Part shown: piece by piece, positions 20,668-54,698 of the stretch
How the letters are laid out: every line of letters begins with the position of its first letter
How positions within the stretch are numbered: the first letter of the stretch is position 1
Source: a virus
IMG/VR virus record: IMGVR_UViG_3300046001_007123
Direction: 5' to 3' (one strand)
DNA: 64,000 nucleotides
Notes under the pieces: generated by a model
The model's database searches: none
The model's input: only the letters and a program-made list of their open reading frames with translations
What the model was told of the DNA's origin: nothing
Made by a program: the position numbers and the translations under genes

Positions 20668-20675
20668 TAACAATA

Positions 20676-21644: not shown

Positions 21645-21645
21645 A

Positions 21646-27455: not shown

Positions 27456-28319
27456 ATGGAAAAGTTAATAAAAGAAGAGATATTAAGAATCTCAGAAGTG
27501 ATGAGGATCCAAACTCTAAACGAATCAGAGTATATGGAGTGTGGGAGATTTTCGGACAACAAACAAAAAATGTTGCTTTGCAAAAAAATCGCATCATTAA
27601 AAAGCTGGTTACATAAAGACGATGGACTTGGACTTAAAAGGATTATTAACAATAAAACCGAAGAACTTAAAACAGACGTTCCTGATTCCTTGAAACAACA
27701 ATTCATTAAGGGGGCGGAACTACTCCAATCATTAGGTAAGATAAGTGAGAAACAAAAAGAATACTTTATAAATAACAAAGTTAATTCAAGTAAGTTAGTT
27801 TACATAAATGGCGAATGGCAACCAATTAATAAGTTGAATACCAACTATTCGGATCTTTCTGAGTTGATTACGGATTTAATTTATAAAGGTGGTGAAAATG
27901 CTAAACCCACAATACAATCTATCATTAATAACCCAACCGAAGGATTAAAAAAAATCAAACCATACATTGGAAGATTGGTTGATAAGTATTTTGAAGATCC
28001 TAACGTACTATTGGATTATACTAAAAACATTCAAAGAGCAAGTGCGATCGGTGAGAGTGCTGAGAATAGAATTAAAGAAACCTTAGAGGATATGGGGTTT
28101 GAATCCGAATATAGTGGAGGTAATGGTGATCTAATTGATATGACTTTTGGTACCGATCTAATAATGACACACCCAACTCACGGAACAAAAACAATTCAGG
28201 TTAAAAATTCAGAAAGAGCTTGGGATAGAAAAGATGCTTACTCTTATGTTGATTGGGTTATTATTGCAAATCCTTTTACTATCTACGATAATAAAACTAA
28301 AAAACCTATTCAGATATGA
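27456..28319 (+). CDS. hypothetical protein (N-terminus MEKLIKEEILRISEV resembles family variant 2)
   Basis: 287-aa ORF. Confidence 0.45.
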   Translation: MEKLIKEEILRISEVMRIQTLNESEYMECGRFSDNKQKMLLCKKIASLKSWLHKDDGLGLKRIINNKTEELKTDVPDSLKQQFIKGAELLQSLGKISEKQKEYFINNKVNSSKLVYINGEWQPINKLNTNYSDLSELITDLIYKGGENAKPTIQSIINNPTEGLKKIKPYIGRLVDKYFEDPNVLLDYTKNIQRASAIGESAENRIKETLEDMGFESEYSGGNGDLIDMTFGTDLIMTHPTHGTKTIQVKNSERAWDRKDAYSYVDWVIIANPFTIYDNKTKKPIQI

Positions 28320-29047
28320 TGACACCAGGGCAAATGTGGGTTAAAAGAAGATATAAGGATCTTATAAGTGATGTTGAAGAGGCAACATCTCTCATAAATG
28401 TTGAGGATCATAAAGACTTCAAAGACTATGCTACTGAAGTATATGATTCGGCTTTAGATATCTATATGTCACATACTGACCACGAGTTAGATAATTTTTG
28501 GGACATATATAGTAGTATAATGGATTCAATGGAAGATATTTTTAATGATCAGTTGAAAGATTATTACGGTAATTCTGAAGAAACCCTAAATGAAAACTTT
28601 GATCAGATTCTTGATTTATACAAAAAAGTTAAGGAAGGCGAAAAGTTAAAACCATCCGAACAATCTATGATGAGGTCGTTTAAAAATTTTGTTGATAAAG
28701 GTGGTAACGCAGAAGAGTTTGTTTACGATCTTGATCAAGAGATGATGCCAGATGAAAGAGAGGGTGAAAGATTTAGATGGGAAAGACACGGAACTCCTTT
28801 AACTTATGAGTTTTCCGAAGAATATGAATCAGATGGGGAAATAAATTACTTCGGTGAGATAAAATATATGGGCGATGAATTCCTTGGGGTTATCTCAACA
28901 GACAAAAGAGGTTATCTAACCGATTATGACTTTTATAGTGTGTTCGATGAAGAAGTTAGATTACAGGATATTTTAAAAGAAAATGGACTCGAACCTGAAA
29001 TAACCAACTTCTTTCAAGAAGAGATAATCAATTCATTAAGAAAATGA
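28316..29047 (+). CDS. hypothetical acidic protein
   Basis: 243-aa ORF with ATGA junction. Confidence 0.45.
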   Translation: MMTPGQMWVKRRYKDLISDVEEATSLINVEDHKDFKDYATEVYDSALDIYMSHTDHELDNFWDIYSSIMDSMEDIFNDQLKDYYGNSEETLNENFDQILDLYKKVKEGEKLKPSEQSMMRSFKNFVDKGGNAEEFVYDLDQEMMPDEREGERFRWERHGTPLTYEFSEEYESDGEINYFGEIKYMGDEFLGVISTDKRGYLTDYDFYSVFDEEVRLQDILKENGLEPEITNFFQEEIINSLRK

Positions 29048-29595
29048 AAATAGTTATCACGGAATCTCAAATGAGAATGGTGATTGAGAGTTCAAACAAA
29101 CCCACTCGTAAATCCGAAATTCTTAAAAAAATGTGGGATAAACAAACTAAAGAGAAAGGTTACCCGACTTTTGATGAAGATATCTTAGGTTATTTCGGTA
29201 TAGATAGATGGACGGATATTAGGGACTATGGTGAGTTCTTCAATGATTACATTGGCGGAGAAGAAAAAACTATGGAAATAATTGATAACTTATCAATTAA
29301 TAACTTCTCAACAAAAGATTTTCCTGAAATGTTTGTTGGTGGGTATGACTTTGATTGGAGAATCACTAATGTTTACGTAAAAGATGATGTTTATAAAATA
29401 GAGTGTCAAGTATCAGAAGGGGGATCTGTTACCACTATGGATGGTAGACACTTATCTTTAGAAGATGCTTTGAATGATGATGAGGTTGGATTTGAGATAC
29501 AGGGTGAAGTAAGTGGAGTTATACAAGATTGTTTAAACTCATTAATATATCCGAGAACGGGAATAAAGGTTTTAGTGTATTACGTGGAGATATGA
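29044..29595 (+). CDS. family-1 member (MKIVITESQMRMVIESSNK)
   Basis: Conserved N-terminal module. ATGA junctions on both sides. Confidence 0.55.
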   Translation: MKIVITESQMRMVIESSNKPTRKSEILKKMWDKQTKEKGYPTFDEDILGYFGIDRWTDIRDYGEFFNDYIGGEEKTMEIIDNLSINNFSTKDFPEMFVGGYDFDWRITNVYVKDDVYKIECQVSEGGSVTTMDGRHLSLEDALNDDEVGFEIQGEVSGVIQDCLNSLIYPRTGIKVLVYYVEI

Positions 29596-29963
29596 AAATA
29601 ATAATTACAGAATCACAATTAAAAACTATAACATTTCAAAATACGGTTGATATGTCATTTGACGATATCAAAAAAAAATGTAATAAGATGAACGAACTTG
29701 GCGCCGATGCCCCTGAGATTATTAGTTTTGATGTTTGTGATCAAATAGAGTCAATTTCAAAAGTTGAAGTTGTAAATGTGTATAAAACAAACAATATGAT
29801 TGAAATATCGATTATTGTTTATTACGAAACTATTTTTCAATCGTTAGATGTTGGTGGATTCCTCTATGAGTTAGAATATCATTTGAGAGAATATTTAGGG
29901 AAAGGGAACTTTAAGTTAAAACTACTTAATTCAATAAATACAAGAGAGGACTTTAACTGGTGA
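29592..29963 (+). CDS. family-1 member (MKIIITESQLKTITFQ)
   Basis: Start moved to the ATG overlapping the upstream TGA, where the conserved module begins. Confidence 0.55.
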   Translation: MKIIITESQLKTITFQNTVDMSFDDIKKKCNKMNELGADAPEIISFDVCDQIESISKVEVVNVYKTNNMIEISIIVYYETIFQSLDVGGFLYELEYHLREYLGKGNFKLKLLNSINTREDFNW

Positions 29964-30295
29964 TGAAAATAATAATAAGTGAAAATCAAATGATGAGTTT
30001 AAGGTTCAGACGAAGAGGTGTGGAACTTGATAAAATAAGTGATATAATTGAGTATCAAACTGAAATACAAGATCCTTGTAATTTTGATGATGGTGAAGAA
30101 TATGCGGATTTTTGTATAAACCAAGGAATTAGTTTTTATTATTGTGATGAAAATTATTGTGATGAAGATGATGAGGATTACAGAGAACCTTCTGATGAAA
30201 TGATTGAGGTTAGAGAAGAAGTTGAAACATACCTAAATAATAAGTACTATAATTATTTAGTTAATTTATGGGAAGAAGATGGAAATTGTGATTAA
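29963..30295 (+). CDS. family-1 member (MKIIISENQMMSLRFRRR)
   Basis: TGATG junction. Conserved module. Confidence 0.5.
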   Translation: MKIIISENQMMSLRFRRRGVELDKISDIIEYQTEIQDPCNFDDGEEYADFCINQGISFYYCDENYCDEDDEDYREPSDEMIEVREEVETYLNNKYYNYLVNLWEEDGNCD

Positions 30296-30296
30296 T

Positions 30297-30599
30297 ATGA
30301 AAATAATACTAACAGAAAAGCAGGCGGATAGAATATTCAAAGACGAGATTGTTTGTGAGAAATGTGAACACTCTTGGAATAAAGAGGAGGGTGATAGACA
30401 TCCATACCTTTGCCACGATTGTGGTTGGGACCTGAAGGAACAAAAATATGACAAAGAAAATCTTTATAAGTTTTGGAAGAAGAAATTATCTAAAGATCCT
30501 ATTGAGGAAAAATGGTCTGAAAAATATAAAAAATCAATAAATTGTAAAAACCCAAAAGGTTTTAGTCAGAAGGCTCATTGTCAAGGGAGAAAAAAATAA
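30297..30599 (+). CDS. family-1 member with Cys4 zinc ribbon (MKIILTEKQADRIF...CEKCEH...CHDCGW)
   Basis: Conserved module plus CxxC...CxxC. Confidence 0.5.
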   Translation: MKIILTEKQADRIFKDEIVCEKCEHSWNKEEGDRHPYLCHDCGWDLKEQKYDKENLYKFWKKKLSKDPIEEKWSEKYKKSINCKNPKGFSQKAHCQGRKK

Positions 30600-33276: not shown

Positions 33277-34175
33277 GTGAAAAAAGAATAGTTAGTGTTG
33301 CGTCTTACAAAAGAATAGATAGTTTGGTTAAAACAATCGATTCAATTTATGATCAGTGTGATGAGATTAATATATTTTTAAATGATCACGAAGGGGAAAT
33401 TCCCCCTCAATTTTTAGATGAAAAAATAAACTTATATTTTTCCGATAATAGGTATGGGGACGCACTAAAGTTTGCAAAATTAATTGATTCGGACGGTTAT
33501 TACCTTACAATAGATGACGACTTAATTTACCCACCAAACTACGTTGACCATATGATCACAAGGTGTAAAGAGTTTTCAAATAAGAGGGTTATAACCCTAC
33601 ACGGAAGAAAGTTTTCTAAAGAACCAATAAAATCATTTTATAGTTCTTACATTGAATTTTATCATTGTCTTAGACATCAAAAAAGAGACGCGTTTATACA
33701 TTTTGGAGGCACTGGTGTTATGTGTTTTCATACAAGTTTAATGAAAATACCAATCACATATTTTGAACATCCAAATATGGCAGACGTATGGGTTGGTAAG
33801 TATTGTATTGAAAATAATATTGAAGTATTATCAATTGCTCACGAGAAAGATTTCTTGACATACCAACCACAAACAACAACGATATTTGATACTCATTCTA
33901 ACTCAGATACAATACAAACAAAAATAGTAAATGATTTGTTTAACCCAAGTAAGGAGGTAAACGTGGTAATAGAAACACCACCTATTCATACTAAAATAGA
34001 AAAAACTATAGAAAAGAGCCAAAAAACTTTAAATTATGAAATGGTAAACAAAATATTTGGGAACCAACACCACTCCACGCCCAAATCGATTAAACCCGTC
34101 CAAACCCAACAAACAAGACCTTCAGGTAATGTCCATATGTTAAGTAAAATAATGGGTAAAAAAAGAGGTAGATGA
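33273..34175 (+). CDS. GT-A-like glycosyltransferase
   Basis: SVASYKRIDSLVKTIDSIYDQ... followed by TIDDDLIYP. Confidence 0.55.
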   Translation: MSEKRIVSVASYKRIDSLVKTIDSIYDQCDEINIFLNDHEGEIPPQFLDEKINLYFSDNRYGDALKFAKLIDSDGYYLTIDDDLIYPPNYVDHMITRCKEFSNKRVITLHGRKFSKEPIKSFYSSYIEFYHCLRHQKRDAFIHFGGTGVMCFHTSLMKIPITYFEHPNMADVWVGKYCIENNIEVLSIAHEKDFLTYQPQTTTIFDTHSNSDTIQTKIVNDLFNPSKEVNVVIETPPIHTKIEKTIEKSQKTLNYEMVNKIFGNQHHSTPKSIKPVQTQQTRPSGNVHMLSKIMGKKRGR

Positions 34176-35131
34176 GTTTAAGTGTAATTATACCTACATA
34201 TGATAATGTGGATTTTTTGGATGAACTATTCGACTCAATTAAAAAAAATCAAGCTAACTTCCCCTTTGAGGTTTTAGTAGGTATTGATAATTGCGAAAAA
34301 ACAAAAGAATATATTAAAGATAAAACCTTCCCACCTAATTTCTTCTTTTTTTTCTTTTTGGAAAATGTTGGACCATATAAGATAAAAAATACTTTGTCTG
34401 AAATATCAAAATATGATAATTTATTTTTCTTTGATTCCGATGATGTTATGACGGAAAGTTGTTTATCTGAATTAAATAGTTTGACCTTAAAATATGAATG
34501 TGTCAAACCCAAATTTATAAACTTTAGAGATAATAATTTTGGTAGGGATTATAAAGACGAAAAGGGGCTTTACGGGGAAGGAGTATTCGCAATAAGAAAG
34601 AACTTATTTCTTGCAATGAATGGATTTGAGGGTTGGAGATGTGCTGCTGATTCGGATTTTATGGGTAGATTATATAGGATGAAAAGAAAAATTAATTTAA
34701 CAAGTAATATATTATTTCATAGACGACTACACCCAAAAAGTTTAACATTAAGTAATGAAACGGGGTATGCCTCCCAAATACGAGGTAAATATTTTAGAAT
34801 GTCAAAAAATAAAACTAATTTCGGTCCATTGACGATATTAGAGAAGGCTGACTACCAAATGTTGGATAATACTACGATTGAGTGGTCAGAATCAATTTCT
34901 GTGATAGAACAAAATGAAGTTGATCTGATAAAAGATCTAAAAGATAAGAAGCACCGATTATTAGAAACAATCTTCCAAAACCTACCAAAAGAAGTTAAAC
35001 CAAAAGAAGTTAAGGTGATTGATTATAATAGGGTGAATCAGAATAGTAATACCCAAACAACGAATACTTTAAATAATGCCCTGAAAAAGGCCAAATTAGA
35101 AAACCTCAAAAAAAATTATGGAAGAAGATAG
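34172..35131 (+). CDS. glycosyltransferase family 2 with internal poly-T tract
   Basis: LSVIIPTYDNVDFLDELFDSIKKNQ...FFDSDDVM. Codons 57-63 are FFFFFFL, encoded by TTCTTCTTTTTTTTCTTTTTG. Confidence 0.65.
   Translation: MSLSVIIPTYDNVDFLDELFDSIKKNQANFPFEVLVGIDNCEKTKEYIKDKTFPPNFFFFFFLENVGPYKIKNTLSEISKYDNLFFFDSDDVMTESCLSELNSLTLKYECVKPKFINFRDNNFGRDYKDEKGLYGEGVFAIRKNLFLAMNGFEGWRCAADSDFMGRLYRMKRKINLTSNILFHRRLHPKSLTLSNETGYASQIRGKYFRMSKNKTNFGPLTILEKADYQMLDNTTIEWSESISVIEQNEVDLIKDLKDKKHRLLETIFQNLPKEVKPKEVKVIDYNRVNQNSNTQTTNTLNNALKKAKLENLKKNYGRR
34340..34360 (+). repeat. T-rich homopolymeric tract (including T8) inside the GT2 CDS
   Basis: ttcttcttttttttctttttg. A possible slipped-strand site. Confidence 0.6.
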
Positions 35132-35162
35132 TTGATTTTAAAAAATTAACTATATTTGTTCT

Positions 35163-35522
35163 ATGGAACACAGCTTAAAAATAGGGAGAGCAATTAAATG
35201 TACGGATATTAAGTTTGTTAAAAAATTAATTAAGAAAAAAGGAATTGAATTCCAAGGAAGATTCCAAAGACCTAATGATTGTACCATCAAGGTAGTTAAT
35301 ATTCGAAAATATCAAAACTTATATTACTCTGATAAATGTGTTTACGAGGTGGACGTTACTGTTAAACTTAATGAATACTACTACACTTACTTTAATAGAA
35401 GAAATAACATCCACGCAAATAAACGAATTAGAAACTACCAAAATATAACGGATCTTTTAAATGAACTAGTTTATTTTAACATTAAGGATATACAAATTTC
35501 AAAAATTACTTTTGAACAGTAA
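35163..35522 (+). CDS. hypothetical basic protein
   Basis: 119-aa ORF. Confidence 0.4.
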   Translation: MEHSLKIGRAIKCTDIKFVKKLIKKKGIEFQGRFQRPNDCTIKVVNIRKYQNLYYSDKCVYEVDVTVKLNEYYYTYFNRRNNIHANKRIRNYQNITDLLNELVYFNIKDIQISKITFEQ

Positions 35523-35527
35523 TTGAT

Positions 35528-35540
35528 TATATTTATTAAT
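35528..35540 (+). promoter_or_regulatory. TATATTTATTAAT box abutting ATG
   Basis: The same 13-mer also sits immediately before ATG 48462 and, at a short distance, before ATG 45194. Near variants precede 53915, 44667 and 54787. Confidence 0.4.
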
Positions 35541-36452
35541 ATGAAATTATCAATAACTGAGCAACAATATAAGATCATACAATCTCGATTAAATTATAAT
35601 CAAGTACTTGAGGAGATGGTATTTAAACTTTCCATCCTTACTGAAGATGAAGAAAGACAACCCGATATGGAGTGGGATTTCACTGAAGTTAAAAATGAGT
35701 TAGACCTTTCAAAACTATGGGTTAAGACCAAAGAAGACGCAAAAGAATATCTATCCAACTTAAAAGAAAAGATTAAAAACCTACCAAGTGATTTAAAAAA
35801 AAGAATATTAAAATATGTTCTATATTCTTTCTTAGGGTTATTATCGTTAAACCAAATCAACAATTACTTAGAAACACCATTACAGAATGTTGTTAAAACA
35901 GAGAAGAAGATTTTTAAATCTATGGAGATCCCAAGGATTCGAAAATCTTCTGAAGGGATCTTTAACCATTTAAAAAGAGAGGAAGGGTCTGTTAGACATA
36001 AAGGCGAACCGATTTTAACAGCATACGACATTGGTGACGGAGCATATACAATAGGATATGGTCACGCAATATTTCCAGGTGAAGATGAGGGTTATGAATT
36101 CTTACCTAACTACAATGATATCGTACCAGGTCAAACTGCAATAACCAAAAAAAATGCTGAAACATTACTTAAAAATGATATCATTGAAGCTGAAGGTATC
36201 ATAAATAAAATTTTAGATGATTGGGAGAAAAAAGGTATTAAAACAAAAATAACGCAAGGTATGTATGATGCGATGGTGTCAATGGCATACAATATGGGTA
36301 GTGGAATTAGGAAAAGTGATTTCATACAAGCGGTTAAAAGAGGTGATTTAGAAGGAGCCAAAGAATTGATCCTTCAGACAAGTTCACATATGTTTGATAA
36401 ATTCCCTGGCCTTGAGGTGAGAAGGAATAATGAATATAATATGTTTGTATGA
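35541..36452 (+). CDS. GH24 (T4-type) lysozyme with family-1 N-terminal module and internal TM segment
   Basis: N-terminus MKLSITEQQYKIIQSRL (family-1 module). TM segment ILKYVLYSFLGLLSL. Lysozyme core YTIGYGH...ITKKNAETLLKNDI...MYDAMVSMAYNMG...GLEVRRNNEYNMF aligns with the T4 e lysozyme. Confidence 0.75.
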   Translation: MKLSITEQQYKIIQSRLNYNQVLEEMVFKLSILTEDEERQPDMEWDFTEVKNELDLSKLWVKTKEDAKEYLSNLKEKIKNLPSDLKKRILKYVLYSFLGLLSLNQINNYLETPLQNVVKTEKKIFKSMEIPRIRKSSEGIFNHLKREEGSVRHKGEPILTAYDIGDGAYTIGYGHAIFPGEDEGYEFLPNYNDIVPGQTAITKKNAETLLKNDIIEAEGIINKILDDWEKKGIKTKITQGMYDAMVSMAYNMGSGIRKSDFIQAVKRGDLEGAKELILQTSSHMFDKFPGLEVRRNNEYNMFV

Positions 36453-37087
36453 TGAACGATAAAAAAATATTAAGTTTATTAAAAAAGTTTGAAGGTGGCA
36501 CCATTGATGTTGATGGGATGATACTCACACCAGTAAAAGTGTCCGAAAAAAATGAATATGTTTATTTTAGGGCTCAAAATCCAAACGATGTGCCATATTT
36601 TAGACCAATATTATTTTATAAACTTGAAGGTGTGTTGGATGAATTTGGGGATTATATAAATCAAAAATTAAAACCTATGATTCATAACGAAGACATTGAT
36701 AATGGGTTATATTTGAGTGAAGAGGTAACCGAAAAAATACAAAATGTATTAAATAATATTTCCGTTATAACTTTTCATTATCCCGACAAATATAGTGAGG
36801 TTAAGATTTATGGGGTTTCTGAAGGATTTAACACTGATTGGGAATTTGATAATTACTCAATAAAAAATATATTTAAACCATTAAGAGCATCCGTTAACGG
36901 TAAAGAGGAAAATGTTGGTGAAGCTGTGGAAAAATATTACGATTTTTTAGAAGAGAAAGAAACGTATTGGGAGTCAGAGCGTTTGTACTCTAACATAGAC
37001 GATGTGATTAATGAATATCCACTTTTACAGGACTACTATAGTGATACCGCTACATATTACGCAACTAGGTTTAACTTAAAATCTTAA
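36449..37087 (+). CDS. hypothetical protein
   Basis: 212-aa ORF. Confidence 0.45.
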   Translation: MMNDKKILSLLKKFEGGTIDVDGMILTPVKVSEKNEYVYFRAQNPNDVPYFRPILFYKLEGVLDEFGDYINQKLKPMIHNEDIDNGLYLSEEVTEKIQNVLNNISVITFHYPDKYSEVKIYGVSEGFNTDWEFDNYSIKNIFKPLRASVNGKEENVGEAVEKYYDFLEEKETYWESERLYSNIDDVINEYPLLQDYYSDTATYYATRFNLKS

Positions 37088-37170
37088 CATAAATCAAGAC
37101 ATTTTTAATTTACAAGTCCCGATAAAAGGATTATGTTTTGGTAAGAAAATAAACCAAAATAAATATAAAA

Positions 37171-37722
37171 ATGAAACAATTAGTAATTGACCCATCTCAC
37201 TCTGACTTGGGATTTAAAATTAAACACTTGATGGTATCAAATGTTAAAGGAACATTAACTGATTATTCAGGTGGAATGAAATACACTATGGATGATATGT
37301 CAGATGCTGAGGTTAGATTTGAGGCTGAAGTTAAATCAATTTCTACTGGTAACACAGATAGAGATAAACACCTTAACAATGAAGATTTCTTCAACACGGA
37401 GAGGTTCCCTAAAATGTATTTTGAATCAACTTACGTTAATCTTGACAATGGAAAGATGAAAGGTGAAATGACAATCAAAGATACAACAAAAGAAATTGAG
37501 TTGGACATCGAATACAATGGTAAAAATACGGATCCTTGGGGTAACACAAAACACGGATTTGAAATTAGCGGAGTAATTAATCGTTCAGATTATGATCTTA
37601 CTTGGAACGCGACTCTTGACACAGGAGGAGTATTATTAAGTGATGAGGTGAAGTTAAACTTAGATGTTCAGATGTTAGAAATGGTAGAAAATTTAGAACC
37701 TCAATCTGAAACTGCGGAATAA
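37171..37722 (+). CDS. YceI-like (polyisoprenoid-binding) domain protein
   Basis: IDPSHSDLGFKIKHLMVSNVKGT...FEAEVKSISTGNTDRDKHLNNEDFFNTERFPKMYFEST matches the YceI family. Confidence 0.7.
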   Translation: MKQLVIDPSHSDLGFKIKHLMVSNVKGTLTDYSGGMKYTMDDMSDAEVRFEAEVKSISTGNTDRDKHLNNEDFFNTERFPKMYFESTYVNLDNGKMKGEMTIKDTTKEIELDIEYNGKNTDPWGNTKHGFEISGVINRSDYDLTWNATLDTGGVLLSDEVKLNLDVQMLEMVENLEPQSETAE

Positions 37723-37751
37723 TATAATTTTCGTACAACACAAAACTATAA

Positions 37752-37782
37752 AATCCCTACATAATTGTGGGGATTTTTCTTT
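37752..37782 (+). terminator. rho-independent terminator (AAATCCCTAC-loop-GTGGGGATTTTT)
   Basis: GC stem plus T-run. Belongs to the ATCC..GGGGAT terminator type. Confidence 0.65.
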
Positions 37783-37802
37783 TATTAAAGTATTTATATG
37801 TG

Positions 37803-39344
37803 ATGAAAAGTTTAATTAAAAAAGTATTACAGGAAGAGGTTAAAGGTATTTTAACTGAAAGTGGTATAAGAAACATACGTGAATTAGCAAAGAGATACCC
37901 AATGGCTAAAATTTACTTTCACCAAGATTTGGATGGAGTAACTACGGCTTTAGCGATGAAAAACTATTTGGAACAACACGGGATCAAAGTTGTTGATGCT
38001 GAGATAATCCAATATGGGGACAAAGAGTTTGCGATTAAGAAACAAGATGCTTCAGGTGATATAATGCCAGTACTTGTTGATTTTGCTCACGGAAAACCAA
38101 TGTTTGTTATTCATACAGATCACCACGATACTCAAGCGGGTGTTGAAAAAGGAACCTCAACAAACTTTAAACCATCAAGATCAAACGTTGAGACGATCTC
38201 TCAAACAATTTCACCAAAGGATATCTTCACCAAAGATGATATTGAGTTAATTTCAATGGTGGATTCGGCTGACTACGCAAAGAATGATATCACACCAGAA
38301 CAGGTAATGAATTATTTGTATAAGTTCGATAGAGAAAAATCAGTAGGTCAAAACAAAAAACTATTAGGTTTGATTACAAACAAACTTCTTTTAGCATTTA
38401 AAAACAAACCTAATTTCTTAAGAGATATTGTTATGAATGCTAAACCATCTTTAATGAGTATGTTATTAAACATTAAAGATCAGATGAAAACAAAAGGGTA
38501 TGCTAGTATTGAGAACTTAGAAAAAAACAAAGAAGATTATGTTAGGTCTCAGAAAATGAATCCAAACGTCGATCTTCAAGATAAAGTAATCGTTCAATAT
38601 GGTGGTGGTAATATGATGAGACCTGGATCATATGATCGATTTACTCCATTTAGAAATAATCCTGAAGCTGACTTCTTGGTAATTGCTTGGCCAATGGGAA
38701 TGGTTCAGGCATCTTGTAATCCATTTAAGAAAGAAAGAGCACTTAAAGGTGTTAACTTAGGTGAGGTTAAAGATGAGGTCTTAGGTAAATGGGAATCTCA
38801 ATTAAGAGAAAAAATGATTCCATTATCAACAATAAAGTGGGTATCTGAATCAGGAAAAGATTTCGGAGGAGAGTCAGTTGGATTTACATTCAAAGATTTT
38901 ATGGCACTTTATGGTGATAAATTCGATGGATCAAAAACAAGTGAAAAATCTTTAGAGGTTATCAAAAAAGCAATGGATACACCATTCAAGGAATTATCCG
39001 AAAAAGAAATGGACTTAATGGATTCTATACAAGTTAGCGCTTGGGATTTAATAAATGCTAATAGTGGTGGACACAAATGTATTACAAACATATCGGCATT
39101 GAATTACTTTGGTCGTGGAAAAAGACCACCAAAAGGAAAATATAGTTACGATGCAAATGCTGAAGATTCGGCATATGTTAAGTTTACGAAGATGATCCAA
39201 CGTGAGTTTGCAAGAGTTCTTAAAGAAAAGATTGCAAAAGCTGGTGACGAAAGATATGAACCTGAGTATGAGATTGATGTTAACGAATCGGTTAGAATTA
39301 CCAAATCAAAAATCAAATCAAAACCTTATAAAATCAACAGATAA
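37803..39344 (+). CDS. DHH/DHHA1 phosphoesterase with family-2 N-terminal module
   Basis: N-terminus MKSLIKKVLQEEVKGILTES. DHH motifs HQDLDGVTTALAM, VDFAHG, IHTDHHD. C-terminal GGH (DHHA1-like). Confidence 0.7.
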   Translation: MKSLIKKVLQEEVKGILTESGIRNIRELAKRYPMAKIYFHQDLDGVTTALAMKNYLEQHGIKVVDAEIIQYGDKEFAIKKQDASGDIMPVLVDFAHGKPMFVIHTDHHDTQAGVEKGTSTNFKPSRSNVETISQTISPKDIFTKDDIELISMVDSADYAKNDITPEQVMNYLYKFDREKSVGQNKKLLGLITNKLLLAFKNKPNFLRDIVMNAKPSLMSMLLNIKDQMKTKGYASIENLEKNKEDYVRSQKMNPNVDLQDKVIVQYGGGNMMRPGSYDRFTPFRNNPEADFLVIAWPMGMVQASCNPFKKERALKGVNLGEVKDEVLGKWESQLREKMIPLSTIKWVSESGKDFGGESVGFTFKDFMALYGDKFDGSKTSEKSLEVIKKAMDTPFKELSEKEMDLMDSIQVSAWDLINANSGGHKCITNISALNYFGRGKRPPKGKYSYDANAEDSAYVKFTKMIQREFARVLKEKIAKAGDERYEPEYEIDVNESVRITKSKIKSKPYKINR

Positions 39345-39348
39345 TAAA

Positions 39349-39648
39349 CTACGCAAGATTCTTTAGAACCATCTCCAAAGAGTAGATGGATTCTTTGTCT
39401 TGTTTAGTTTTATTTGTCTTAGATCTTAAGTAGTTCAAACTATCAATAATTTCTTCTCTCTTACTTTTTGATCTCAAAGGTGGGGTTACCAATGAGGGAG
39501 TTTTTCTTGTATTCGCCTTACTTAAATTATCAGATCCAAGAAACTCTCTAACAATCTCTAACGACTTATCAGGATTCCAAGTGAAGATGTTAACCAAAAC
39601 GTATGCGAATATCTTTTTCATATTATAAAGATACAAAATATTCAACAC
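39349..39648 (-). CDS. hypothetical protein (isolated minus-strand gene, signal-peptide-like N-terminus)
   Basis: 99-aa ORF. MKKIFAYVLVNIF... Confidence 0.4.
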   Translation of the reverse strand: MLNILYLYNMKKIFAYVLVNIFTWNPDKSLEIVREFLGSDNLSKANTRKTPSLVTPPLRSKSKREEIIDSLNYLRSKTNKTKQDKESIYSLEMVLKNLA

Positions 39649-39677
39649 ATAACTATCTTTAAGGATATTTATTTATA

Positions 39678-40319
39678 ATGAAACAACTCATCAGACATAT
39701 ATTAAAAGAAGAAGTTAATCGAAAATATTCTAAACCTACACCAAAGGTAGAACAACTTGTTTATAGATGGTTAAATGATTATTTTAATGGTGCTCAAATG
39801 TACCACAACAAATCGTGGGAATCAACACATAGTTTTGAATTTTGTAATCACGGAAAAGAAATATTACATATTACTTTATATTTTAATGTTGATTATAGTG
39901 TTTATGATGATAAAAGAAAAACCGAAGAAAGAGATCTTGAGCGAGGTTACCTAACAGTTCCAAAAAATGTATTTGAAGAGTTATCGTTAGATATTCCTGT
40001 AAGGGCAAGTTATTTAAAATACCTTTTTGAAGAATGGTTTGACGATACTTATTTAGGTGAAATTCAAAAGTTTATGGGTAGAAATGATATCTATATTGAT
40101 GAATTTGATGTTACTGGTAGAGACGCTGAAACTTGCGTACCACCAGTAACAAAACCTGAAGATGTGAGTGATGAGGATATGATACAATATATTCTTAAAA
40201 CCACACTTTTTAAAAAAGATGATATATTAAAATATGAAAATGAAGAACCAGGTTGGATTGAAAAAACTTATTTAGAAAAACTTCGCGGTGATGAAATGGA
40301 AAGATTAAGAGGACAATGA
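39678..40319 (+). CDS. family-2 member (MKQLIRHILKEEVNRK)
   Basis: First of five consecutive paralogs. Stop and start codons overlap. Confidence 0.55.
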   Translation: MKQLIRHILKEEVNRKYSKPTPKVEQLVYRWLNDYFNGAQMYHNKSWESTHSFEFCNHGKEILHITLYFNVDYSVYDDKRKTEERDLERGYLTVPKNVFEELSLDIPVRASYLKYLFEEWFDDTYLGEIQKFMGRNDIYIDEFDVTGRDAETCVPPVTKPEDVSDEDMIQYILKTTLFKKDDILKYENEEPGWIEKTYLEKLRGDEMERLRGQ

Positions 40320-40822
40320 GAGAACTAATAAGAAAAATATTAAATGAAAGTATAGTCAAGGATCAAGTTAAACAATTGATTGATGATGAAGGTCTTGCAG
40401 GTGCTATAGAATATATTGGTGGTGCCGATAATTTAATTAAGATCTTATATAATGGTGATATAATGAAATACTACGAAGAAACGGGATTCCGACCGATAAG
40501 ATTAACTATAGATCCCAATTTATATATTGATGATCTAATTGTTCAAAAGTTAAATTTACCATCAATTAGGTTTTCAGGTCAAGATATGAAAGATTTAGGT
40601 GAGTTTAGTTGGACAACTAATGGTCATACTTATAAGTTTAATGCTCAATTGATACCAAGGGATCTTTACTCAGGTCAAAAAATATGGAGAGTTGTTGGTC
40701 AATCAGGTGATTATGGATTTGGTTATTCATTTATTACTAAAAGAAATACATTAGGTAAAAGGGCAAGAACACAAATATACAACCAAATAATAGATAAATA
40801 CGATTTACAAGAGTACCTGTGA
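40316..40822 (+). CDS. family-2 member (MRELIRKILNESIVKD)
   Basis: ATGA junction. Confidence 0.55.
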   Translation: MRELIRKILNESIVKDQVKQLIDDEGLAGAIEYIGGADNLIKILYNGDIMKYYEETGFRPIRLTIDPNLYIDDLIVQKLNLPSIRFSGQDMKDLGEFSWTTNGHTYKFNAQLIPRDLYSGQKIWRVVGQSGDYGFGYSFITKRNTLGKRARTQIYNQIIDKYDLQEYL

Positions 40823-41664
40823 GAGAACTAATTAGACATATCTTAAAAGAACAATCGAATAAACTTAAGTTATTAAAAGTAATTCAAAATGAAGGTATTT
40901 TTAGTGCCGCTGAACTTGTCGGTGGACTAAATAACCTTAAAAGAGTATTCAAAGATAACAAGGCAATAATTGATAGAATTGAATCTCTTAAAGGTAAAGT
41001 CACCTTTGGTTATGATGGAATCGATTTCCCGTTCAACTTTGATATCATTGGAATGAAGGCAAACAAGTGGAATACTAATTTTTGGCCAATAGTTAATGTT
41101 ACTTATGACAATAGTGAATTAACTGAGGAGGAAGATAACTTGGTTAAACGTTTTATTATTGAAGGACAAGATAGTCCATATAATGTTTCTTTAGATAAAA
41201 ATTACGAAAAAATTAGGTTCAACACACCTAATTATATTACTATTAAGGAAATAAATGGTGAAAATGCTGATCAAATTGATTTCCCTATAGTACCATTTAC
41301 AGATCCATTTGATGAAATGTTACAATTAAGAAGTAAGTTATATAAAAAAACATCTCTTTACGAAAGTGTTGAGGACACACAGAAAAACGTAATCAATTTT
41401 CTTATGAGAAGATATGAAGTTGAGGATAAAGATTTGGGTTGGGGTGAAGATAATTTACCGATGAGGTTAGTTAAATTCGACGTTAACGGACAAACCTACG
41501 TTATCACAAGTTTCGACACAAAAAGAAAACAGATAAATGAGATACTTTATATGTTAATCGAAAATAATATAATCGAGAGACCGTTTGAAAACTTTAACGA
41601 AAACGATCCGTATAGACAAAAAATAGTTAGAACAATTAAAATGTTTTTGAATAAAGTAATGTAA
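40819..41664 (+). CDS. family-2 member (GTG start; MRELIRHILKEQSNK)
   Basis: GTGA junction with the upstream stop. Confidence 0.5.
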   Translation: MRELIRHILKEQSNKLKLLKVIQNEGIFSAAELVGGLNNLKRVFKDNKAIIDRIESLKGKVTFGYDGIDFPFNFDIIGMKANKWNTNFWPIVNVTYDNSELTEEEDNLVKRFIIEGQDSPYNVSLDKNYEKIRFNTPNYITIKEINGENADQIDFPIVPFTDPFDEMLQLRSKLYKKTSLYESVEDTQKNVINFLMRRYEVEDKDLGWGEDNLPMRLVKFDVNGQTYVITSFDTKRKQINEILYMLIENNIIERPFENFNENDPYRQKIVRTIKMFLNKVM

Positions 41665-42113
41665 TGAAAGAATTAATTAGACATATATTAAAAGAGGAGG
41701 TTAACAATAGTAAAAACATTACTAAAGGTATTAATCTTGCGGTTAAATTACTATCCAAAAAATATCCATTCATTGTTGGATGGAAATTGGCTAACGAATT
41801 AAATGATTATACATATACTATTTATGTGAACTTACTTGTAGATTTCCCAAAAGTTAAAGAATATTATGGACTTGAGACAAATAAAGTATATTTAAGATCT
41901 CCCGAATTTATTTATGACTCAGGACACGGAAAACCTTACCCTTTCTCTGCTTTGGATTATGATAAAGTATTTGATGACCCATTTTTTATTAATAAAGAGT
42001 TAGTGAATAATTTTTCTGACATATATAATGATTTACCTGATAGTTTAAAAATGGAACGTGGTGACGACAAATATAAAGATATAAATGTGGATAGTTATTT
42101 TTATGTCAAATGA
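41664..42113 (+). CDS. family-2 member (MKELIRHILKEEVNNSK)
   Basis: TAATG junction. Confidence 0.55.
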   Translation: MKELIRHILKEEVNNSKNITKGINLAVKLLSKKYPFIVGWKLANELNDYTYTIYVNLLVDFPKVKEYYGLETNKVYLRSPEFIYDSGHGKPYPFSALDYDKVFDDPFFINKELVNNFSDIYNDLPDSLKMERGDDKYKDINVDSYFYVK

Positions 42114-43756
42114 AAAAATTACTTAATAAAATAATACAGGATTTTATTTTACCTGAATACAAACACGTAATATGTGATATTGAGGTTAAAGATCCAAATG
42201 AAAGATTTGATACCTTGGGAGGAACTCCATTTAAATCACCAAGTGTTACTATAACATTTATTGGTGGTCGAGGAACAAAACTTTGGCCCGTTACTCAAGG
42301 GATTCAGAAAATGTATGATGACGTAATGGATGAGGTTTGGCATACCATATATGATTATACTGAAACTGCTGTCGACATCTATAGCAACACCACAAAAGAT
42401 TGTGGGAAAGAAAACATTTACCTTAAAGAACATATTAAAAAAGTTTTAAAAGAAGAAACACAAAAAATTAAAAAAAGAGCTCCATTGGAAAAGGCCGTTA
42501 CAACTTTTATTGAATCGTTGTTGGAAGATTATGATCTACCTGAAAATTTTAAAGGAGTCGCTGTTGATATTGTTGATGGTGGTAAAGAATGTCATATTAC
42601 AGGACTATTCGAGAATAGTTTTAATCAAAATGATTCTAATAAACTATTTTCAGTCTTCAATAAAATAAAGAAAGAAATACCAAATTATTTTGGAGACCAA
42701 TTTGATTACGTAACAACTGGTAACTCAACCATAAATAATTATAACGATCATCAGTGGTGGTATGATAAGAAAAAATCAATTAATGAATCAAAATTCTTTC
42801 GTAGAAGAATTGATATGGTCCTGATGGACAAAGAATTCTATGAGTATTTAAATATCGTTACCAGTCTTTCTTTAGAAAGGATTCTTAATAATGTTGAATT
42901 TAATTTTAATGATTTCAACGACGGAGTTATAACTCACCTTATAGATGCTTACTATATGGATTTATCCGATAATAGATCAAACAAAGTACCTTATGATGAA
43001 ATTTATGACTTCCTGTCAAAATATTATTACGATAAGATCAAAGATAGGTATGATAGTTTGTTTACCCAAAACATCAATGAACTTTTTAATCGAAAAGACA
43101 TTAGAAGAAGAACATCTGAATTTAACGAGGAGAACATCATACGATTGATTAAAAAGGAAATGAGTGAAACAGACCCGAACGATTATTCGGATGAGTATGA
43201 TTATGCTTCCGACATAATAAGTTGGGTTATTCCACATTTTTATCCATATAATGAATACGACCCAAAGTATGAGGACACATATGAGGAGATTGATGATTTT
43301 ATGAAGATGGAATACGGAGGAATGATATTTGATTACTTCAATGAAATTAATCCTGATATTAACGATTTAAATGAATCGGAAAACAAAAAGTATGGATTAC
43401 TTAGACCAATAGAAGAGAATGGTTTATTTCAGGTAATGCAAGACACAGGACTATCTCTTCAACAAATCATATCAAAGACAGGTGAACTACCAAGAGAAGT
43501 ATTAGAGAGATACATTAGGGACTTTATAAATGAGGAAGGATATCATCAGACAAAAGGAGATGTAACGATAGAATTTTCAATAGAATTAGATAAAGATAAA
43601 AGTGCCGATTCATTTTATTTGTCGGGAGATAAGGTTACGGTAGAAGTAAATGAGTATGGTAAGTATGGTATGCAAATAAATGGATTTATAGAAAGACTAT
43701 CAAACTTCACTGATAAAGAAATTTATATGGTAGTTAAAGGTATGATTAATTGGTGA
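42110..43756 (+). CDS. family-2-related large protein with an internal second copy of the module (LKEHIKKVLKEETQKIKK at about aa 105)
   Basis: 548 aa. The N-terminus MKKLLNKIIQDFILPEY plus the internal module suggest a fusion of two family members. Confidence 0.5.
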   Translation: MKKLLNKIIQDFILPEYKHVICDIEVKDPNERFDTLGGTPFKSPSVTITFIGGRGTKLWPVTQGIQKMYDDVMDEVWHTIYDYTETAVDIYSNTTKDCGKENIYLKEHIKKVLKEETQKIKKRAPLEKAVTTFIESLLEDYDLPENFKGVAVDIVDGGKECHITGLFENSFNQNDSNKLFSVFNKIKKEIPNYFGDQFDYVTTGNSTINNYNDHQWWYDKKKSINESKFFRRRIDMVLMDKEFYEYLNIVTSLSLERILNNVEFNFNDFNDGVITHLIDAYYMDLSDNRSNKVPYDEIYDFLSKYYYDKIKDRYDSLFTQNINELFNRKDIRRRTSEFNEENIIRLIKKEMSETDPNDYSDEYDYASDIISWVIPHFYPYNEYDPKYEDTYEEIDDFMKMEYGGMIFDYFNEINPDINDLNESENKKYGLLRPIEENGLFQVMQDTGLSLQQIISKTGELPREVLERYIRDFINEEGYHQTKGDVTIEFSIELDKDKSADSFYLSGDKVTVEVNEYGKYGMQINGFIERLSNFTDKEIYMVVKGMINW

Positions 43757-43879: not shown

Positions 43880-44485
43880 ATGGAAGGATATATCTATTTG
43901 GGTGAATACTATGATGTTCTCGGAAGAGAACTCGACACAACCGACAAGAAGATCGGGAAAACAATCTCTTTAACTCAAAGAGAGTATCAACTTAACAGAA
44001 CAAAATCTCCAATAGGATATAAGATTATCTCTGCGTATATGGTAGACGATATGGATAAGGTGGAAAAACTATTACACGCCATCCTCGATAGTCGAAGATT
44101 GGTTGGGGAGTGGTTTAAAGATGATGAGGACACATTAACAGGTGAGTTCATCAACTTTATGAATATCTATGGGGCTACCACTATGGATATGAAACAACTC
44201 AAAGAAGAACAAATCTCATTAAGTGGTGATGAAAGATTAGTGAAGATCGCCGACTCATTTGGTAAAGATACGATGTTGATCCGAACATACAAAGGAATCG
44301 ACTACGACGTACTATTAGATTCAAAAGGAATATTACACTTCAACGGAGAAACCTTTGACACTCCAAATAAGTTCTACAATAGTGGTTTACTTAAGTTCTT
44401 AACTGGTAAACGAGGTAATAGTGGTACCAATCAGGTAACTCAATTTAAAGTTAAGGAAACGAAGGAATCACTAAGAGAATTATAA
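43880..44485 (+). CDS. T5orf172 (GIY-YIG-like) domain protein
   Basis: GYIYLGEYYD...KKIGKTISLTQREYQLNRTKSPIGYKII...VEKLLHAILDSRRLVGEWF follows the T5orf172 pattern (GxVYI..KIG.T....R...L....P.....E..LH..F...R..GEWF). Confidence 0.65.
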   Translation: MEGYIYLGEYYDVLGRELDTTDKKIGKTISLTQREYQLNRTKSPIGYKIISAYMVDDMDKVEKLLHAILDSRRLVGEWFKDDEDTLTGEFINFMNIYGATTMDMKQLKEEQISLSGDERLVKIADSFGKDTMLIRTYKGIDYDVLLDSKGILHFNGETFDTPNKFYNSGLLKFLTGKRGNSGTNQVTQFKVKETKESLREL

Positions 44486-44666: not shown

Positions 44667-45122
44667 ATGAATCTTAAGGAACAAATAAAGAAAGTATTAA
44701 GGGAAGAGACAAACATTAAACCTGCGTTAAGAAATCTAATTGATATGGCGGTTGATGGATTAGACGACTTATATTATGATTGGGCAGAATATGATTGTGG
44801 TATGGGAGTATGTTGTGACCCATATGCAATAGGATTTGTAAAACAAACAAGTGAGTATAACGATTACACCTTCAAGTTGGTTGATGGAGATAAATGGGAT
44901 GTGTATGGGGATTACCCTGAAGAATTTATTGATGACTTACCTGAAGTATGTTATGACACACCCGACCTTAGAAACCCAAACTTCAATACAATAATTTTAT
45001 ATGAAGAATTGGCTAGCGAAATTGAGGATTACTTCGGATCGGTTAAAAATTGGGAATCACCTCTATTGGATTTAATAAACGAAAAGTATCATAGTCACGC
45101 AACTAGAATATTATTCATATAA
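44667..45122 (+). CDS. family-2 member (MNLKEQIKKVLREETN)
   Basis: 151-aa ORF. TATATTTATTAGAT box abuts the ATG. Confidence 0.5.
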   Translation: MNLKEQIKKVLREETNIKPALRNLIDMAVDGLDDLYYDWAEYDCGMGVCCDPYAIGFVKQTSEYNDYTFKLVDGDKWDVYGDYPEEFIDDLPEVCYDTPDLRNPNFNTIILYEELASEIEDYFGSVKNWESPLLDLINEKYHSHATRILFI

Positions 45123-48461: not shown

Positions 48462-48824
48462 ATGAACCTACAAGAAAACATACAAAGAATTAGAGAAATG
48501 ATGGGAATGGATAATTCTCGTTTAACTTTTGACATACAAAAACTTGTGGATGATGAAATTATATTCGTTACAGAACCAGGTGATGGACAAGGAGGAATTG
48601 CAAAACCAAATTGGGAAGGGGATTGTAGTGTAATAACATTAGCCAACTTAACAGATGATGAAATAAAATTAAATCCGTGGAGATTAAAGGCAATAGAAAG
48701 ACCTTTTAGTGATTGCATACCATATGTCCAAGATAGACAAAATGAATGGAGTGAAGAAAAATACCAACAAGTTATTGATTCAATAAAAATGAAAGGTGAA
48801 GAAGTTGATAATTATATAATATGA
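48462..48824 (+). CDS. family-2 member (MNLQENIQRIREMMG)
   Basis: Start moved to the ATG directly after the TATATTTATTAAT box. Confidence 0.5.
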   Translation: MNLQENIQRIREMMGMDNSRLTFDIQKLVDDEIIFVTEPGDGQGGIAKPNWEGDCSVITLANLTDDEIKLNPWRLKAIERPFSDCIPYVQDRQNEWSEEKYQQVIDSIKMKGEEVDNYII

Positions 48825-53903: not shown

Positions 53904-53914
53904 TATTTATTAAT

Positions 53915-54295: not shown

Positions 54296-54302
54296 CTCAT
54301 CT

Positions 54303-54632: not shown

Positions 54633-54698
54633 TAATTCTGCCTTTCTTATTGAATCCGGAAACGGATCCCGACTTCGTCGGAAAAAAATCGACCGACC

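Follow-up and report, generated by a model that had tools for sequence, protein, structure and literature searches.

The internal proteins of bacteriophage T4 share only a capsid-targeting sequence (CTS) of approximately 10 residues, MKTYQEFIAE, which is cleaved once by gp21 and is able to carry foreign cargo, and across the T-even phages these proteins are diverse anti-defence proteins with only the CTS in common. The T4 protein Alt is processed at ITE-6 (MELITE) and at LTE-619, and T4 propeptides are 10–20 residues in length. Our study concerns a 64,000-nt stretch of viral DNA (IMG/VR record IMGVR_UViG_3300046001_007123), the whole of which is referred to here as the window, and in particular two of its genes, a GH24 lysozyme and a DHH/DHHA1 phosphoesterase, which both begin with a short peptide of a common leader family. 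The window was annotated with 114 open reading frames (ORFs), approximately 22–24 of which carry a leader, and this leader family is real and far beyond chance. By analogy with T4, we suggest that the leader may be a propeptide that targets proteins to the capsid and is cleaved off by a protease, in which case both enzymes would be cargo that is packaged and ejected; we give this reading slightly less than an even chance.

The likeness to the T4 CTS and propeptides lies in a peptide of 6–20 residues at the extreme N-terminus of unrelated proteins, ending in (I/L)-x-Glu, and the Alt tripeptides ITE and LTE are identical to those found here. The N-termini of T4 gp24 (MAKINELLRE↓S), gp22 (MLKEQLIAE↓A) and gp67 (MEGLIE) were read alongside the window leaders MKIIITE↓S, MKKIxKLTE↓S and MxxLIRxILKE↓E (arrows follow the Glu), and as sequences the two sets match in length, position and type of P3–P1 residue. 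The general cleavage consensus of gp21 is (I/L)-x-E. At the level of the lineage, a counterpart of the T4 head machinery is present as well, with an S77 protease and a T4-type portal alongside a scaffold-like protein and a capsid protein of the gp23 type. The lineage differs from T4 in the consensus of the leader, which is MKIIITESQ(Y/L) or MxxLI(K/R)x(I/V)LxEE here and MKHLKxYKIFES in a megaphage lineage, in the tandem use of modules and in scale, as T4 tags a handful of proteins whereas approximately 20 % of window ORFs and at least 115 clusters are tagged here.

A second comparison is with the jumbo phages SPN3US and phiKZ. For SPN3US and phiKZ, heads of approximately 50 proteins are described (for a 240-kb genome in SPN3US), many of them ejected, with N-terminal propeptides cut after Glu, and the share of genes that is leader-tagged in our study (10–20 %) is comparable with the SPN3US head proteome. 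The SPN3US paralogues gp53 and gp54 have identical N-terminal 15-mers and diverged bodies, which their authors read as CTS-like. However, the propeptides of these phages are mostly >100 residues long with no genome-wide short motif, their sites are of the form A/S/G-x-E (a small P3 residue rather than the I/L seen here), their protease is of the S80 family and their hosts belong to another phylum.

The two enzymes, and the parts of them that are discussed below, are as follows.

35541–36452, + strand: leader-tagged GH24 lysozyme, 303 amino acids (aa); GH24 domain at approximately aa 135–303, presumed catalytic residues E148, D166 and T170
35541–35579, + strand: variant-1 leader MKLSITEQQYKII of the lysozyme, with the tripeptide ITE at aa 5–7
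35625–35645, + strand: second leader-like motif KLSILTE, lysozyme aa 29–35; E35 is invariant
35805–35861, + strand: moderately hydrophobic conserved segment ILKYVLYSFLGLLSLNQIN, lysozyme aa 89–107
37803–39344, + strand: leader-tagged DHH/DHHA1 phosphoesterase, 513 aa; H40-x-D42-x-D44, D93, D106-H107-H108, D154 and G422-G423-H424 (DHHA1)
37803–37841, + strand: variant-2 leader MKSLIKKVLQEEV of the DHH enzyme, with LQE at aa 9–11; orthologues have variant 1 or nothing here
37845–37862, + strand: second module GILTES, DHH aa 15–20; E19 is invariant and stands just before the conserved core
39234–39341, + strand: variable C-terminal tail of the DHH enzyme, aa 478–513 (...RYEPEYEIDVNESVRITKSKIKSKPYKINR), absent from 467-aa orthologues; predicted local distance difference test (pLDDT) score <50 at aa 486–513 in the AlphaFold2 (AF2) model

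The leader is built from two modules, A, MK-(I/L/V)2-3-(T/S)-E-S-Q-(Y/L) (written more broadly, (I/L/V)(I/L/V)(T/S)-E-S-(Q/D/E)-(Y/L)), and B, M-x-x-L-I-(K/R)-x-(I/V)-L-x-E-E (more broadly, L-I-(K/R)-x-(I/V)-L-x-E), which occur singly or in tandem; variant 3 consists of A followed by B, and every variant terminates in hydrophobic-x-Glu. The lysozyme carries module A twice (MKLSITE ... KLSILTE), and the DHH enzyme has module B and then A (MKSLIKKVLQEE-VKG-ILTES). Simple patterns for the three variants gave approximately 20 matches in the window, every one of them at the N-terminus of an ORF on the + strand. In 1.35 Mb of loci, chosen without regard to the leader and searched in six frames, the core motif was found 65 times at an N-terminus and twice nominally internally, both of the latter lying at or near frame starts. 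The leader Glu is at position 7 in at least 90 % of a set of 114 leader proteins and in 32 of 32 independent variant-1 leaders.

Selection on the leader acts on the peptide rather than on a DNA or RNA repeat, because synonymous sites vary: third codon positions range from 0.45 to 1.68 bits whilst first and second positions are fixed at conserved residues, and AGT and TCN codons are both in use for Ser, as are TTA and CTA for Leu. A repeat at the DNA or RNA level was therefore rejected as the basis of the leader. A Sec, Tat or lipoprotein signal peptide was rejected as well, as the leaders hold no more than 3–4 consecutive hydrophobic residues before T-E-S-Q or K-E-E and have no h-region; genuine signal peptides of the window, such as MKNLLLTLLLTLPLFVFSQ at 21646, look unlike leaders.

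Besides the two enzymes, leaders were found on the following genes of the window.

1752–2087, + strand: variant 3 (MKKIVKLTESDLIRIVQRVIQE; module A then B)
27456–28319, + strand: variant-2-like (MEKLIKEEILRISE), with TATTTAT upstream
29044–30599, + strand: tandem array of four variant-1 genes, MKIVITESQ, MKIIITESQ, MKIIISENQ and MKIILTEKQ, starting at 29044, 29592, 29963 and 30297
39678–43756, + strand: tandem array just downstream of the DHH gene, with four clear variant-2 genes, MKQLIRHILKEE, MRELIRKILNES, VRELIRHILKEQ (GTG start, 40819) and MKELIRHILKEE
42110 (start), + strand: fifth gene of the preceding array (MKKLLNKIIQD), a weak leader match
44667–45122, + strand: variant 2 (MNLKEQIKKVLREE), preceded by a terminator and TATTTAT
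48462–49276, + strand: two variant-2 genes (MNLQENIQRIRE and MNLQEHIRRVLKEE)
53427–55416, + strand: four genes of mixed variants, MKIIITESQ, MEQLIKRIIRES, MKLIITEDQ and MKYIITESQ
56198–56551, + strand: variant 3 (MKKIIKLTESELINVVKMVIES)
57947–58516, + strand: variant 1 (MKIVISESQY), preceded by a terminator and TATTTAT
60657–61220, + strand: variant 3 (MKKIRLTETEFRSLIKRIVVE)

A leader-only mini-ORF, MKIIKLTESDLTNII and a stop codon, was seen at 2087–2134, its ATG overlapping the stop of the 1752–2087 gene (TAATG), and is followed immediately by an intrinsic-terminator hairpin at approximately 2143–2168; it may be what is left of a leader gene that was deleted, or may encode a leader peptide that acts on its own. 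A second shared module, G(W/L/I)xxAxE(L/Y)(I/V)GG..NL, lies approximately 25–45 residues into the products of 40316–40822, 40819–41664, 48821–49276 and 53427–53903. It sits behind variant-1 and variant-2 leaders alike in otherwise unlike small proteins, so the N-terminal region may comprise more than one exchangeable piece. Two genes inside or beside the leader-gene arrays are likely of homing-endonuclease type, one at 43880–44485 (T5orf172/MUG113) and one at 4258–4977 (with the GIY-YIG-like N-terminus GIYKITNPKNKVYIGQS).

That the leader is a portable module rather than part of a fold, as the earlier note on this DNA had proposed, was strongly supported by its distribution. The exact back-translated MKIIITESQ pattern matched at least 118 stretches of IMG/VR contigs, and 274 leader proteins from IMG/VR and the window fell into 115 clusters with no similarity past residue 25, several of which mix variants. 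Recognizable leader-tagged domains include two lysozymes, an M23 peptidase, PG_binding, a sigma-70/extracytoplasmic function (ECF) factor, a CCA/poly(A) polymerase with HD, SET, pterin-4a-carbinolamine dehydratase, DHH and L5 gp82, and the portal, TerL, capsid, sheath and metabolic enzymes are without a leader. Most leader proteins are ORFans, with 19 Pfam families in the set of 114 compared with 50 in 112 non-leader controls of similar length, and searches of Pfam and PHROGs gave no family for most of the window leader proteins or for the head-module leader proteins.

Orthologues of the DHH enzyme exchange their leaders. The GILTES module of the window's protein corresponds to the minimal N-terminus, MKKKLITE↓SG, of 89 of 120 orthologue clusters, approximately 25 others have a variant-2-like extension and 3 a variant-1 extension, and orthologues with variant 2, variant 1 or the bare MKKKLITE, a minimal module A, are 65–88 % identical. 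In all 119 intact orthologues, hydrophobic-hydrophobic-x-Glu directly precedes the conserved core. The lysozyme leader was kept as MK[LV]xI[TR]E.Q in 119 of 119 full-length sequences among the 120 orthologues listed. In the AF2 models, the leaders of both enzymes form a low-confidence helix outside the catalytic folds.

A further line of evidence for portability came from the complete 642-kb megaphage LR756502.1, which has a leader of its own, MK(H/Y)(L/I)KxYK(I/L)FES, on 54 (strict pattern) to approximately 95 (loose pattern) of 923 ORFs. The megaphage homologues of both enzymes are tagged with this leader (DHH, MLRKYGQFINEE; lysozyme, MRYIKTFNED), and in the alignments its terminal Glu coincides exactly with E19 in the DHH enzyme and with E35 in the lysozyme, the latter at MRYIKTFNE↓D. 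Both enzymes are thus leader-tagged in two lineages with different tags, and the boundary between tag and enzyme is hydrophobic-x-Glu in each. Thirty-four of the 54 strict leader genes of this genome (loci L289–L301) lie in its first 100 kb, mainly at 11–100 kb, and many share DILLELxDDG.

Both genes were recovered at the positions and with the N-termini previously given (MKLSITEQQYKII for the lysozyme and MKSLIKKVLQEEVKGILTES for the DHH enzyme). The lysozyme is a GH24 enzyme, as had been claimed, by its match to PF00959 over aa 159–298 (E 1.7e-18, with a score of 67.5 bits where the cut-off is 22.3), by its match to the endolysin family phrog_7 (E 9.8e-20) and by its conserved E148, D166 and T170. 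In an alignment of 24 homologues, E148 (in EEGS) and D166 were invariant and T170 nearly invariant (DGAYTIGYGH), and we take these residues to be the counterparts of the catalytic E11, D20 and T26 of T4 lysozyme. The AF2 model is confident for aa 138–303 only, the first 130 residues being low-confidence helices. An internal transmembrane segment, which the earlier note had described, was not borne out: by a 19-residue Kyte–Doolittle window, the best segment (aa 89–107) had a mean of 1.04, under the customary cut-off of 1.6, and AF2 gave a broken helix there (H83–96 and H103–107, pLDDT approximately 55–65). A signal-anchor-release or otherwise membrane-anchored lysozyme was rejected, as there is no hydrophobic helix of at least approximately 18 residues and the leader itself is charged and amphipathic. 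The claim that this enzyme is distinct from a GH19 endolysin encoded elsewhere in the window stands, on PHROGs and Pfam matches.

14748–15575, − strand: separate endolysin with PG_binding_1 and GH19 domains (phrog_181, 1e-65; PF00182, PF01471), without a leader; TATTTAT 16 nt upstream

The identity of the DHH/DHHA1 phosphoesterase was upheld with a caveat, as it was reached through invariant motifs and a predicted fold, sequence searches giving no route. Its match to PF01368 was sub-threshold (20.4 bits against 28.1, E 6.6e-4), a precomputed PF01368 match exists for just 1 of the 120 listed homologue clusters, PHROGs gave no family, and a search of the Protein Data Bank with a sequence profile of the homologues yielded no relative, only a His-tag artefact. 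In alignments of 15 and 52 homologues, which include megaphage proteins at 41–45 % identity, H40, D42, D44, D93, D106-H107-H108, D154 and G422-G423-H424 (as SGGH, the DHHA1 motif) were invariant. The AF2 model (pLDDT 73, predicted template modelling score 0.70) has the two-domain DHH and DHHA1 fold, DHH-superfamily structures nearly fill the top of both structure searches, and NrnA-like and RecJ/Cdc45-like structures score alike against it. Compared to the stand-alone DHH/DHHA1 phosphoesterases (NrnA, PggH, Pde2, DhhP and PAP phosphatase) and archaeal RecJ/Cdc45 (GAN), with which it shares only 10–16 % identity, the window's enzyme carries additional helices as insertions, as well as a leader at its N-terminus and a variable tail at its C-terminus. 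Many homologues stop at ...LKEKI (467 aa) and others (P0018, P0050 and P0117 were compared) add up to 300 residues; the tail in the window is acidic and then basic (RYEPEYEIDVNES...KSKIKSKPYKINR) and contains V-N-E and M-N-E, which could be a second processing site in the manner of the T4 Alt C-terminus.

If the leader acts as the T4 CTS does, it would dock its protein onto the scaffolding core while the prohead assembles, an S77 (gp21-type) prohead protease would cut after the leader Glu, and the mature enzymes would stay in the head and be ejected into the cell with the DNA. For the lysozyme, cuts would be predicted at ITE7↓Q and probably LTE35↓D, leaving a mature N-terminus of QQYKIIQSR... 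or DEERQPDMEWDFTEVK..., and for the DHH enzyme at LQE11↓E and LTE19↓S, leaving SGIRNIRELAK... after E19. The GH24 protein would then be a virion-borne wall hydrolase distinct from the GH19 endolysin, and the DHH/DHHA1 protein a pre-made phosphoesterase or nuclease acting at the very start of infection. We infer docking, cleavage, packaging and ejection, and likewise any substrate of the DHH enzyme. In this role, the lysozyme would resemble known virion-associated peptidoglycan hydrolases, since it would add to the endolysin another muralytic enzyme, one that is proposed to work from the virion during entry. The known examples, such as the lysozyme domain of T4 gp5, and T7 gp16, are domains of tail or core structural proteins, whereas here a free GH24 enzyme has a 130-residue helical N-terminal region and a leader.

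The machinery that such a propeptide would need is encoded in contigs that carry leaders, which have TerL, Portal_T4, Peptidase_S77, an acidic scaffold-like protein and a Gp23-type capsid protein. In two loci (L131 and L305), variant-1 and variant-2 leader genes lie beside TerL, Portal_T4, Peptidase_S77 and Gp23. The S77 protease is 30 % identical to T4 gp21, has PF03420 in all 120 listed homologues and matches 2,077 phage records, mostly annotated as prohead protease among the matches listed. At about residue 60, the capsid protein reads LLNE↓S or LLTE↓A, compared with FLTE↓A in T4 gp23. On a 282-kb contig (L305 2937–4829), a variant-2 gene (345 aa) and a variant-1 gene (approximately 280 aa) lie directly upstream of TerL, and 22 diverged loci (L131 1217–2062 and 21 others) have kept the variant-1 gene at this place, which is the position of the T4 small terminase. 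Neither of these TerL-adjacent genes was assigned to a Pfam or PHROGs family, and a tblastn comparison of their products, the two head-module leader proteins, with cultured phages gave no match. LR756502.1 likewise has portal, protease and capsid genes, the protease domain being the N-terminal part of a 699-aa ORF (225272–227371) between portal and capsid.

A promoter-like motif, TATTTAT, links leader genes with head genes. The relevant features around the two enzymes are listed with the remaining genes of this region.

35530–35536, + strand: TATTTAT promoter-like motif before the lysozyme, ending 4 nt before the ATG
36449–37087, + strand: 212-aa ORF with no leader and no family match, overlapping the lysozyme stop codon
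37171–37722, + strand: YceI-like protein without a leader (PF04264, E 1e-43), between the lysozyme and DHH genes
37750–37777, + strand: terminator-like hairpin of 12 pairs with a T-rich tail
37791–37797, + strand: TATTTAT promoter-like motif before the DHH gene, ending 5 nt before the ATG

The terminator-like hairpin indicates that the DHH gene begins a new transcription unit. The motif occurs no more than 30 nt upstream of 12 of 24 leader genes compared with 12 of 90 others (Fisher p = 3e-4). It ends 1–6 nt before the ATG in 11 leader genes, often right after a terminator hairpin and T-run, and 11–22 nt before some non-leader genes, the GH19 endolysin included; in related loci, it also precedes TerL, portal, p257 and protease. 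Sites of the form (A)TATTTAT(T/A)A were seen at 1741, 27444, 35530, 37791, 39666, 44655, 48451, 53414, 53904, 54774 and 57935, and also upstream of 15575(−). Classical sigma-70 sites were not enriched. The motif is probably a phage promoter giving nearly leaderless mRNAs, perhaps a late one, and late co-expression is suggested by its being common to leader genes, the head genes of related loci and the window's GH19 endolysin. The 212-aa ORF is co-conserved with the lysozyme in related loci (L034, L208 and L213). YceI proteins are usually bacterial, and periplasmic or lipid-binding.

The proposal that these enzymes are targeted to the virion and ejected, which the earlier note had made, has circumstantial backing in the gp21-type Glu endings, the S77 protease and head module of leader contigs and the shared motif. 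Several observations weigh against a capsid-targeting propeptide. Packaging and cleavage are predicted from resemblance, and hydrophobic-x-Glu is a weak motif that occurs within the first 20 residues of 49 of the 114 window ORFs. Pterin-4a-carbinolamine dehydratase and the conserved 280-aa protein at the small-terminase position would be odd head cargo. The S77 protease was found neither on the window's contig nor on any contig with an orthologue of the DHH enzyme or lysozyme: window ORFs had no match in the protease neighbourhoods, DHH loci and protease loci had no contig name in common, and the neighbourhood on the 282-kb contig held no window homologue. The protease is thus tied to the window through the lineage and the leader. 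Most megaphage leader genes lie within one block of 100 kb that is made up of small paralogous ORFans and is remote from the head genes, a pattern that would also fit an early host-takeover class, and TATTTAT could be a general rather than a late promoter. The DHH gene has >3,700 homologues, typically 65–88 % identical and in >100 clusters, and behaves as a conserved core gene. Conservation of this strength is more usual for an enzyme of core replication or repair than for cargo involved in an arms race. Finally, the cultured relative Flavobacterium phage immuto (NC_055915.1, L288), whose protease is 43 % identical to the lineage's S77 protease, shows only faint leader-like N-termini. Our confidence stays below an even chance because the case is built on resemblance and co-occurrence, the searches placed no S77 protease on the window's contig, hydrophobic-x-Glu is common, some cargo is odd, megaphage leader genes cluster and a general promoter is an option.

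The faint leader-like N-termini of immuto, MKKQILSEQFRRMQKLAGIITESQF, MKKSQLRQIIKEAL and MKKSQIVKAVQEVLEE, were seen at 6935–7399, 8448–9206 and 18615–18836, the last in a 73-aa gene between portal and protease. The protease of this phage begins ...KGLLTE↓S. Immuto could serve as an experimental entry point.

Alternatively, the leader may be a tag for some other, cytoplasmic process, recognized by a chaperone or unfoldase (DnaK/DnaJ, ClpA-type or GroEL), acting as an N-degron or directing proteins to a replication or assembly compartment, so that the enzymes would act in the producing cell; we judge this unlikely. A peptide-level, portable and lineage-specific leader is what any protein-recognition tag would be expected to show, and with basic residues on either side of its hydrophobic runs (MKIIIT, KxLIRHILK) it is similar to generic Hsp70-binding segments. 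A chaperone-binding patch would, however, be less specific than the invariant Glu and the T/S-E-S-Q signature, and the closest sequence analogues are the propeptides cleaved by T4 gp21. The tagged sigma factor, CCA-adding enzyme and pterin dehydratase look cytoplasmic, megaphage leader genes cluster away from the head module, and the related megaphage encodes a DnaK beside leader genes (L003 448–2331). A recent paper on jumbo phages of Bacteroidota lists ClpA-like and DnaK/DnaJ genes, and the N-terminus of the T4 head protein is reported to direct proteins to GroEL. However, no chaperone or Clp gene was identified within the window, some leader genes lie inside the head module, and the promoter-like motif is common to leader and head genes.

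We consider it still less probable that the leader is a start-of-gene cassette, that is, a run of A/U-rich first 10 codons suited to near-leaderless mRNAs without a Shine–Dalgarno sequence, or a recombination junction, or both, which was spread by duplication and cassette exchange. The position of TATTTAT 1–6 nt before the ATG of 11 leader genes, which implies almost leaderless mRNAs, would fit this, as would the A/T-rich leader codons, but half of the window's leader genes are operon-internal, with overlapping stop and start codons and no TATTTAT, and have kept the leader nonetheless. Tandem arrays of small paralogues and the leader-only mini-ORF at 2087–2134 are likewise in keeping with a cassette, and orthologues that differ in the leader they carry require recombination at the junction of leader and body. 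Against this, amino acids are kept while synonymous sites drift, including switches between AGT and TCN for Ser and TTA and CTA for Leu that an RNA or DNA signal could not tolerate, and neither T-E-S-Q nor an invariant Glu would become fixed if only A/U-rich codons were selected for. Moreover, the leader is kept on both enzymes across hundreds of diverged orthologues and, in another form, across lineages. Lastly, common descent of a single expanded multigene family, in which the lysozyme and the DHH enzyme would owe their matches to coincidence or recent fusion and carry no general meaning, is very improbable, since the paralogues in arrays, the G(W/L/I)xxAxE(L/Y)(I/V)GG motif after the leader in ORFs 40316, 40819, 48821 and 53427 and the DILLELxDDG common to many megaphage leader genes are outweighed by 115 clusters unrelated past residue 25 (on which plain paralogy was rejected), by unlike folds (GH24, M23, DHH, sigma-70, nucleotidyltransferase and SET), by variants swapped among strict orthologues and by the occurrence of that second motif behind both variant-1 and variant-2 leaders.

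The DHH enzyme had been put forward as a candidate counter to cyclic-nucleotide-based defence, which is speculation. The precedent of CTS-tagged anti-defence cargo in T-even phages makes the conjecture reasonable, and in the function proposed it would resemble Acb1 and Apyc1, phage nucleases that destroy immune signals, in being a phage phosphodiesterase acting on cyclic nucleotide signals. Neither of these is a DHH protein, Acb1 being a 2H phosphoesterase and the fold of Apyc1 that of a metallo-beta-lactamase, and our literature search found no DHH-fold phage anti-signalling enzyme. Conservation and the predicted RecJ/NrnA-like fold fit a phosphoesterase of nucleic-acid ends or of nanoRNA/pAp equally well, and a housekeeping nuclease would fit the high sequence conservation at least as well as a counter-defence role.

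The window has a G+C content of approximately 32 % and carries nearly all of its genes on the + strand. An identical copy of its DHH gene was found on an 81-kb ENA metagenome contig, and megablast of 35000–40000 against 50,697 phage records gave no relative at the DNA level. At the protein level, the only phage records holding the DHH gene were uncultured megaphages of 635–735 kb, and for approximately half of the window ORFs there are homologues on viral contigs in IMG/VR that reach 257–321 kb, with gene order partly kept. Several secreted proteins bear Bacteroidota-style signal peptides, the nearest cultured relative of the lineage's head protease is in a T4-like Flavobacterium phage, and the recent paper on jumbo phages describes similar aquatic 'moraphages' of Bacteroidota with a T4-type prohead protease among their core genes. 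On this evidence, the window is treated as part of an uncultured jumbo phage, and we infer that the host is probably a member of Bacteroidota. The genes of 15732–23140 and 62390–64000 encode Bacteroidota-style signal peptides or lipoprotein signals, for example the peptide at 21646 and ...LFSCKTTQAQ; such runs are unusual in a phage and give a hint to the host phylum. A phase-variable tract in ORF 34172–35131 was considered and dropped, as its poly-Phe stretch is not a pure homopolymer.

Propeptides of the CTS type are already known. New here are the consensus sequences, the way in which they are used as modules and in tandem, their specificity to each lineage and the scale on which they occur in uncultured jumbo and mega phages, at 10–20 % of genes and at least 115 families. 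Searches of open-access papers and bioRxiv found no earlier description of the leader strings or of CTS-like tags in huge phages. We consider it possible, and rather doubtful, that the leader is the 'address label' of a very large packaged and ejected proteome of >100 families in uncultured Bacteroidota jumbo and mega phages, co-evolving with the scaffold and S77 protease of each lineage. Such a proteome would include wall hydrolases, a sigma factor, a CCA-adding enzyme, a SET methyltransferase and the DHH phosphoesterase. A tag for chaperones, degradation or localization would likewise be of interest, because no genome-wide, lineage-specific peptide code of a phage was found in the literature searched.

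In summary, huge phages are known almost only from metagenomes, with most of their genes lacking an assigned function, and a tag on 10–20 % of genes would place hundreds of ORFans into one functional class. If the leader is CTS-like as in T4, this class would comprise head cargo that enters the cell along with the DNA, the class to which the anti-restriction proteins of T-even phages belong, and exact cleavage sites and mature N-termini are predicted for the lysozyme and the DHH enzyme. Should the address label prove true, the leader could serve to load foreign proteins into such capsids, and the injected arsenal of phages that have never been cultured could be read off metagenomes directly.

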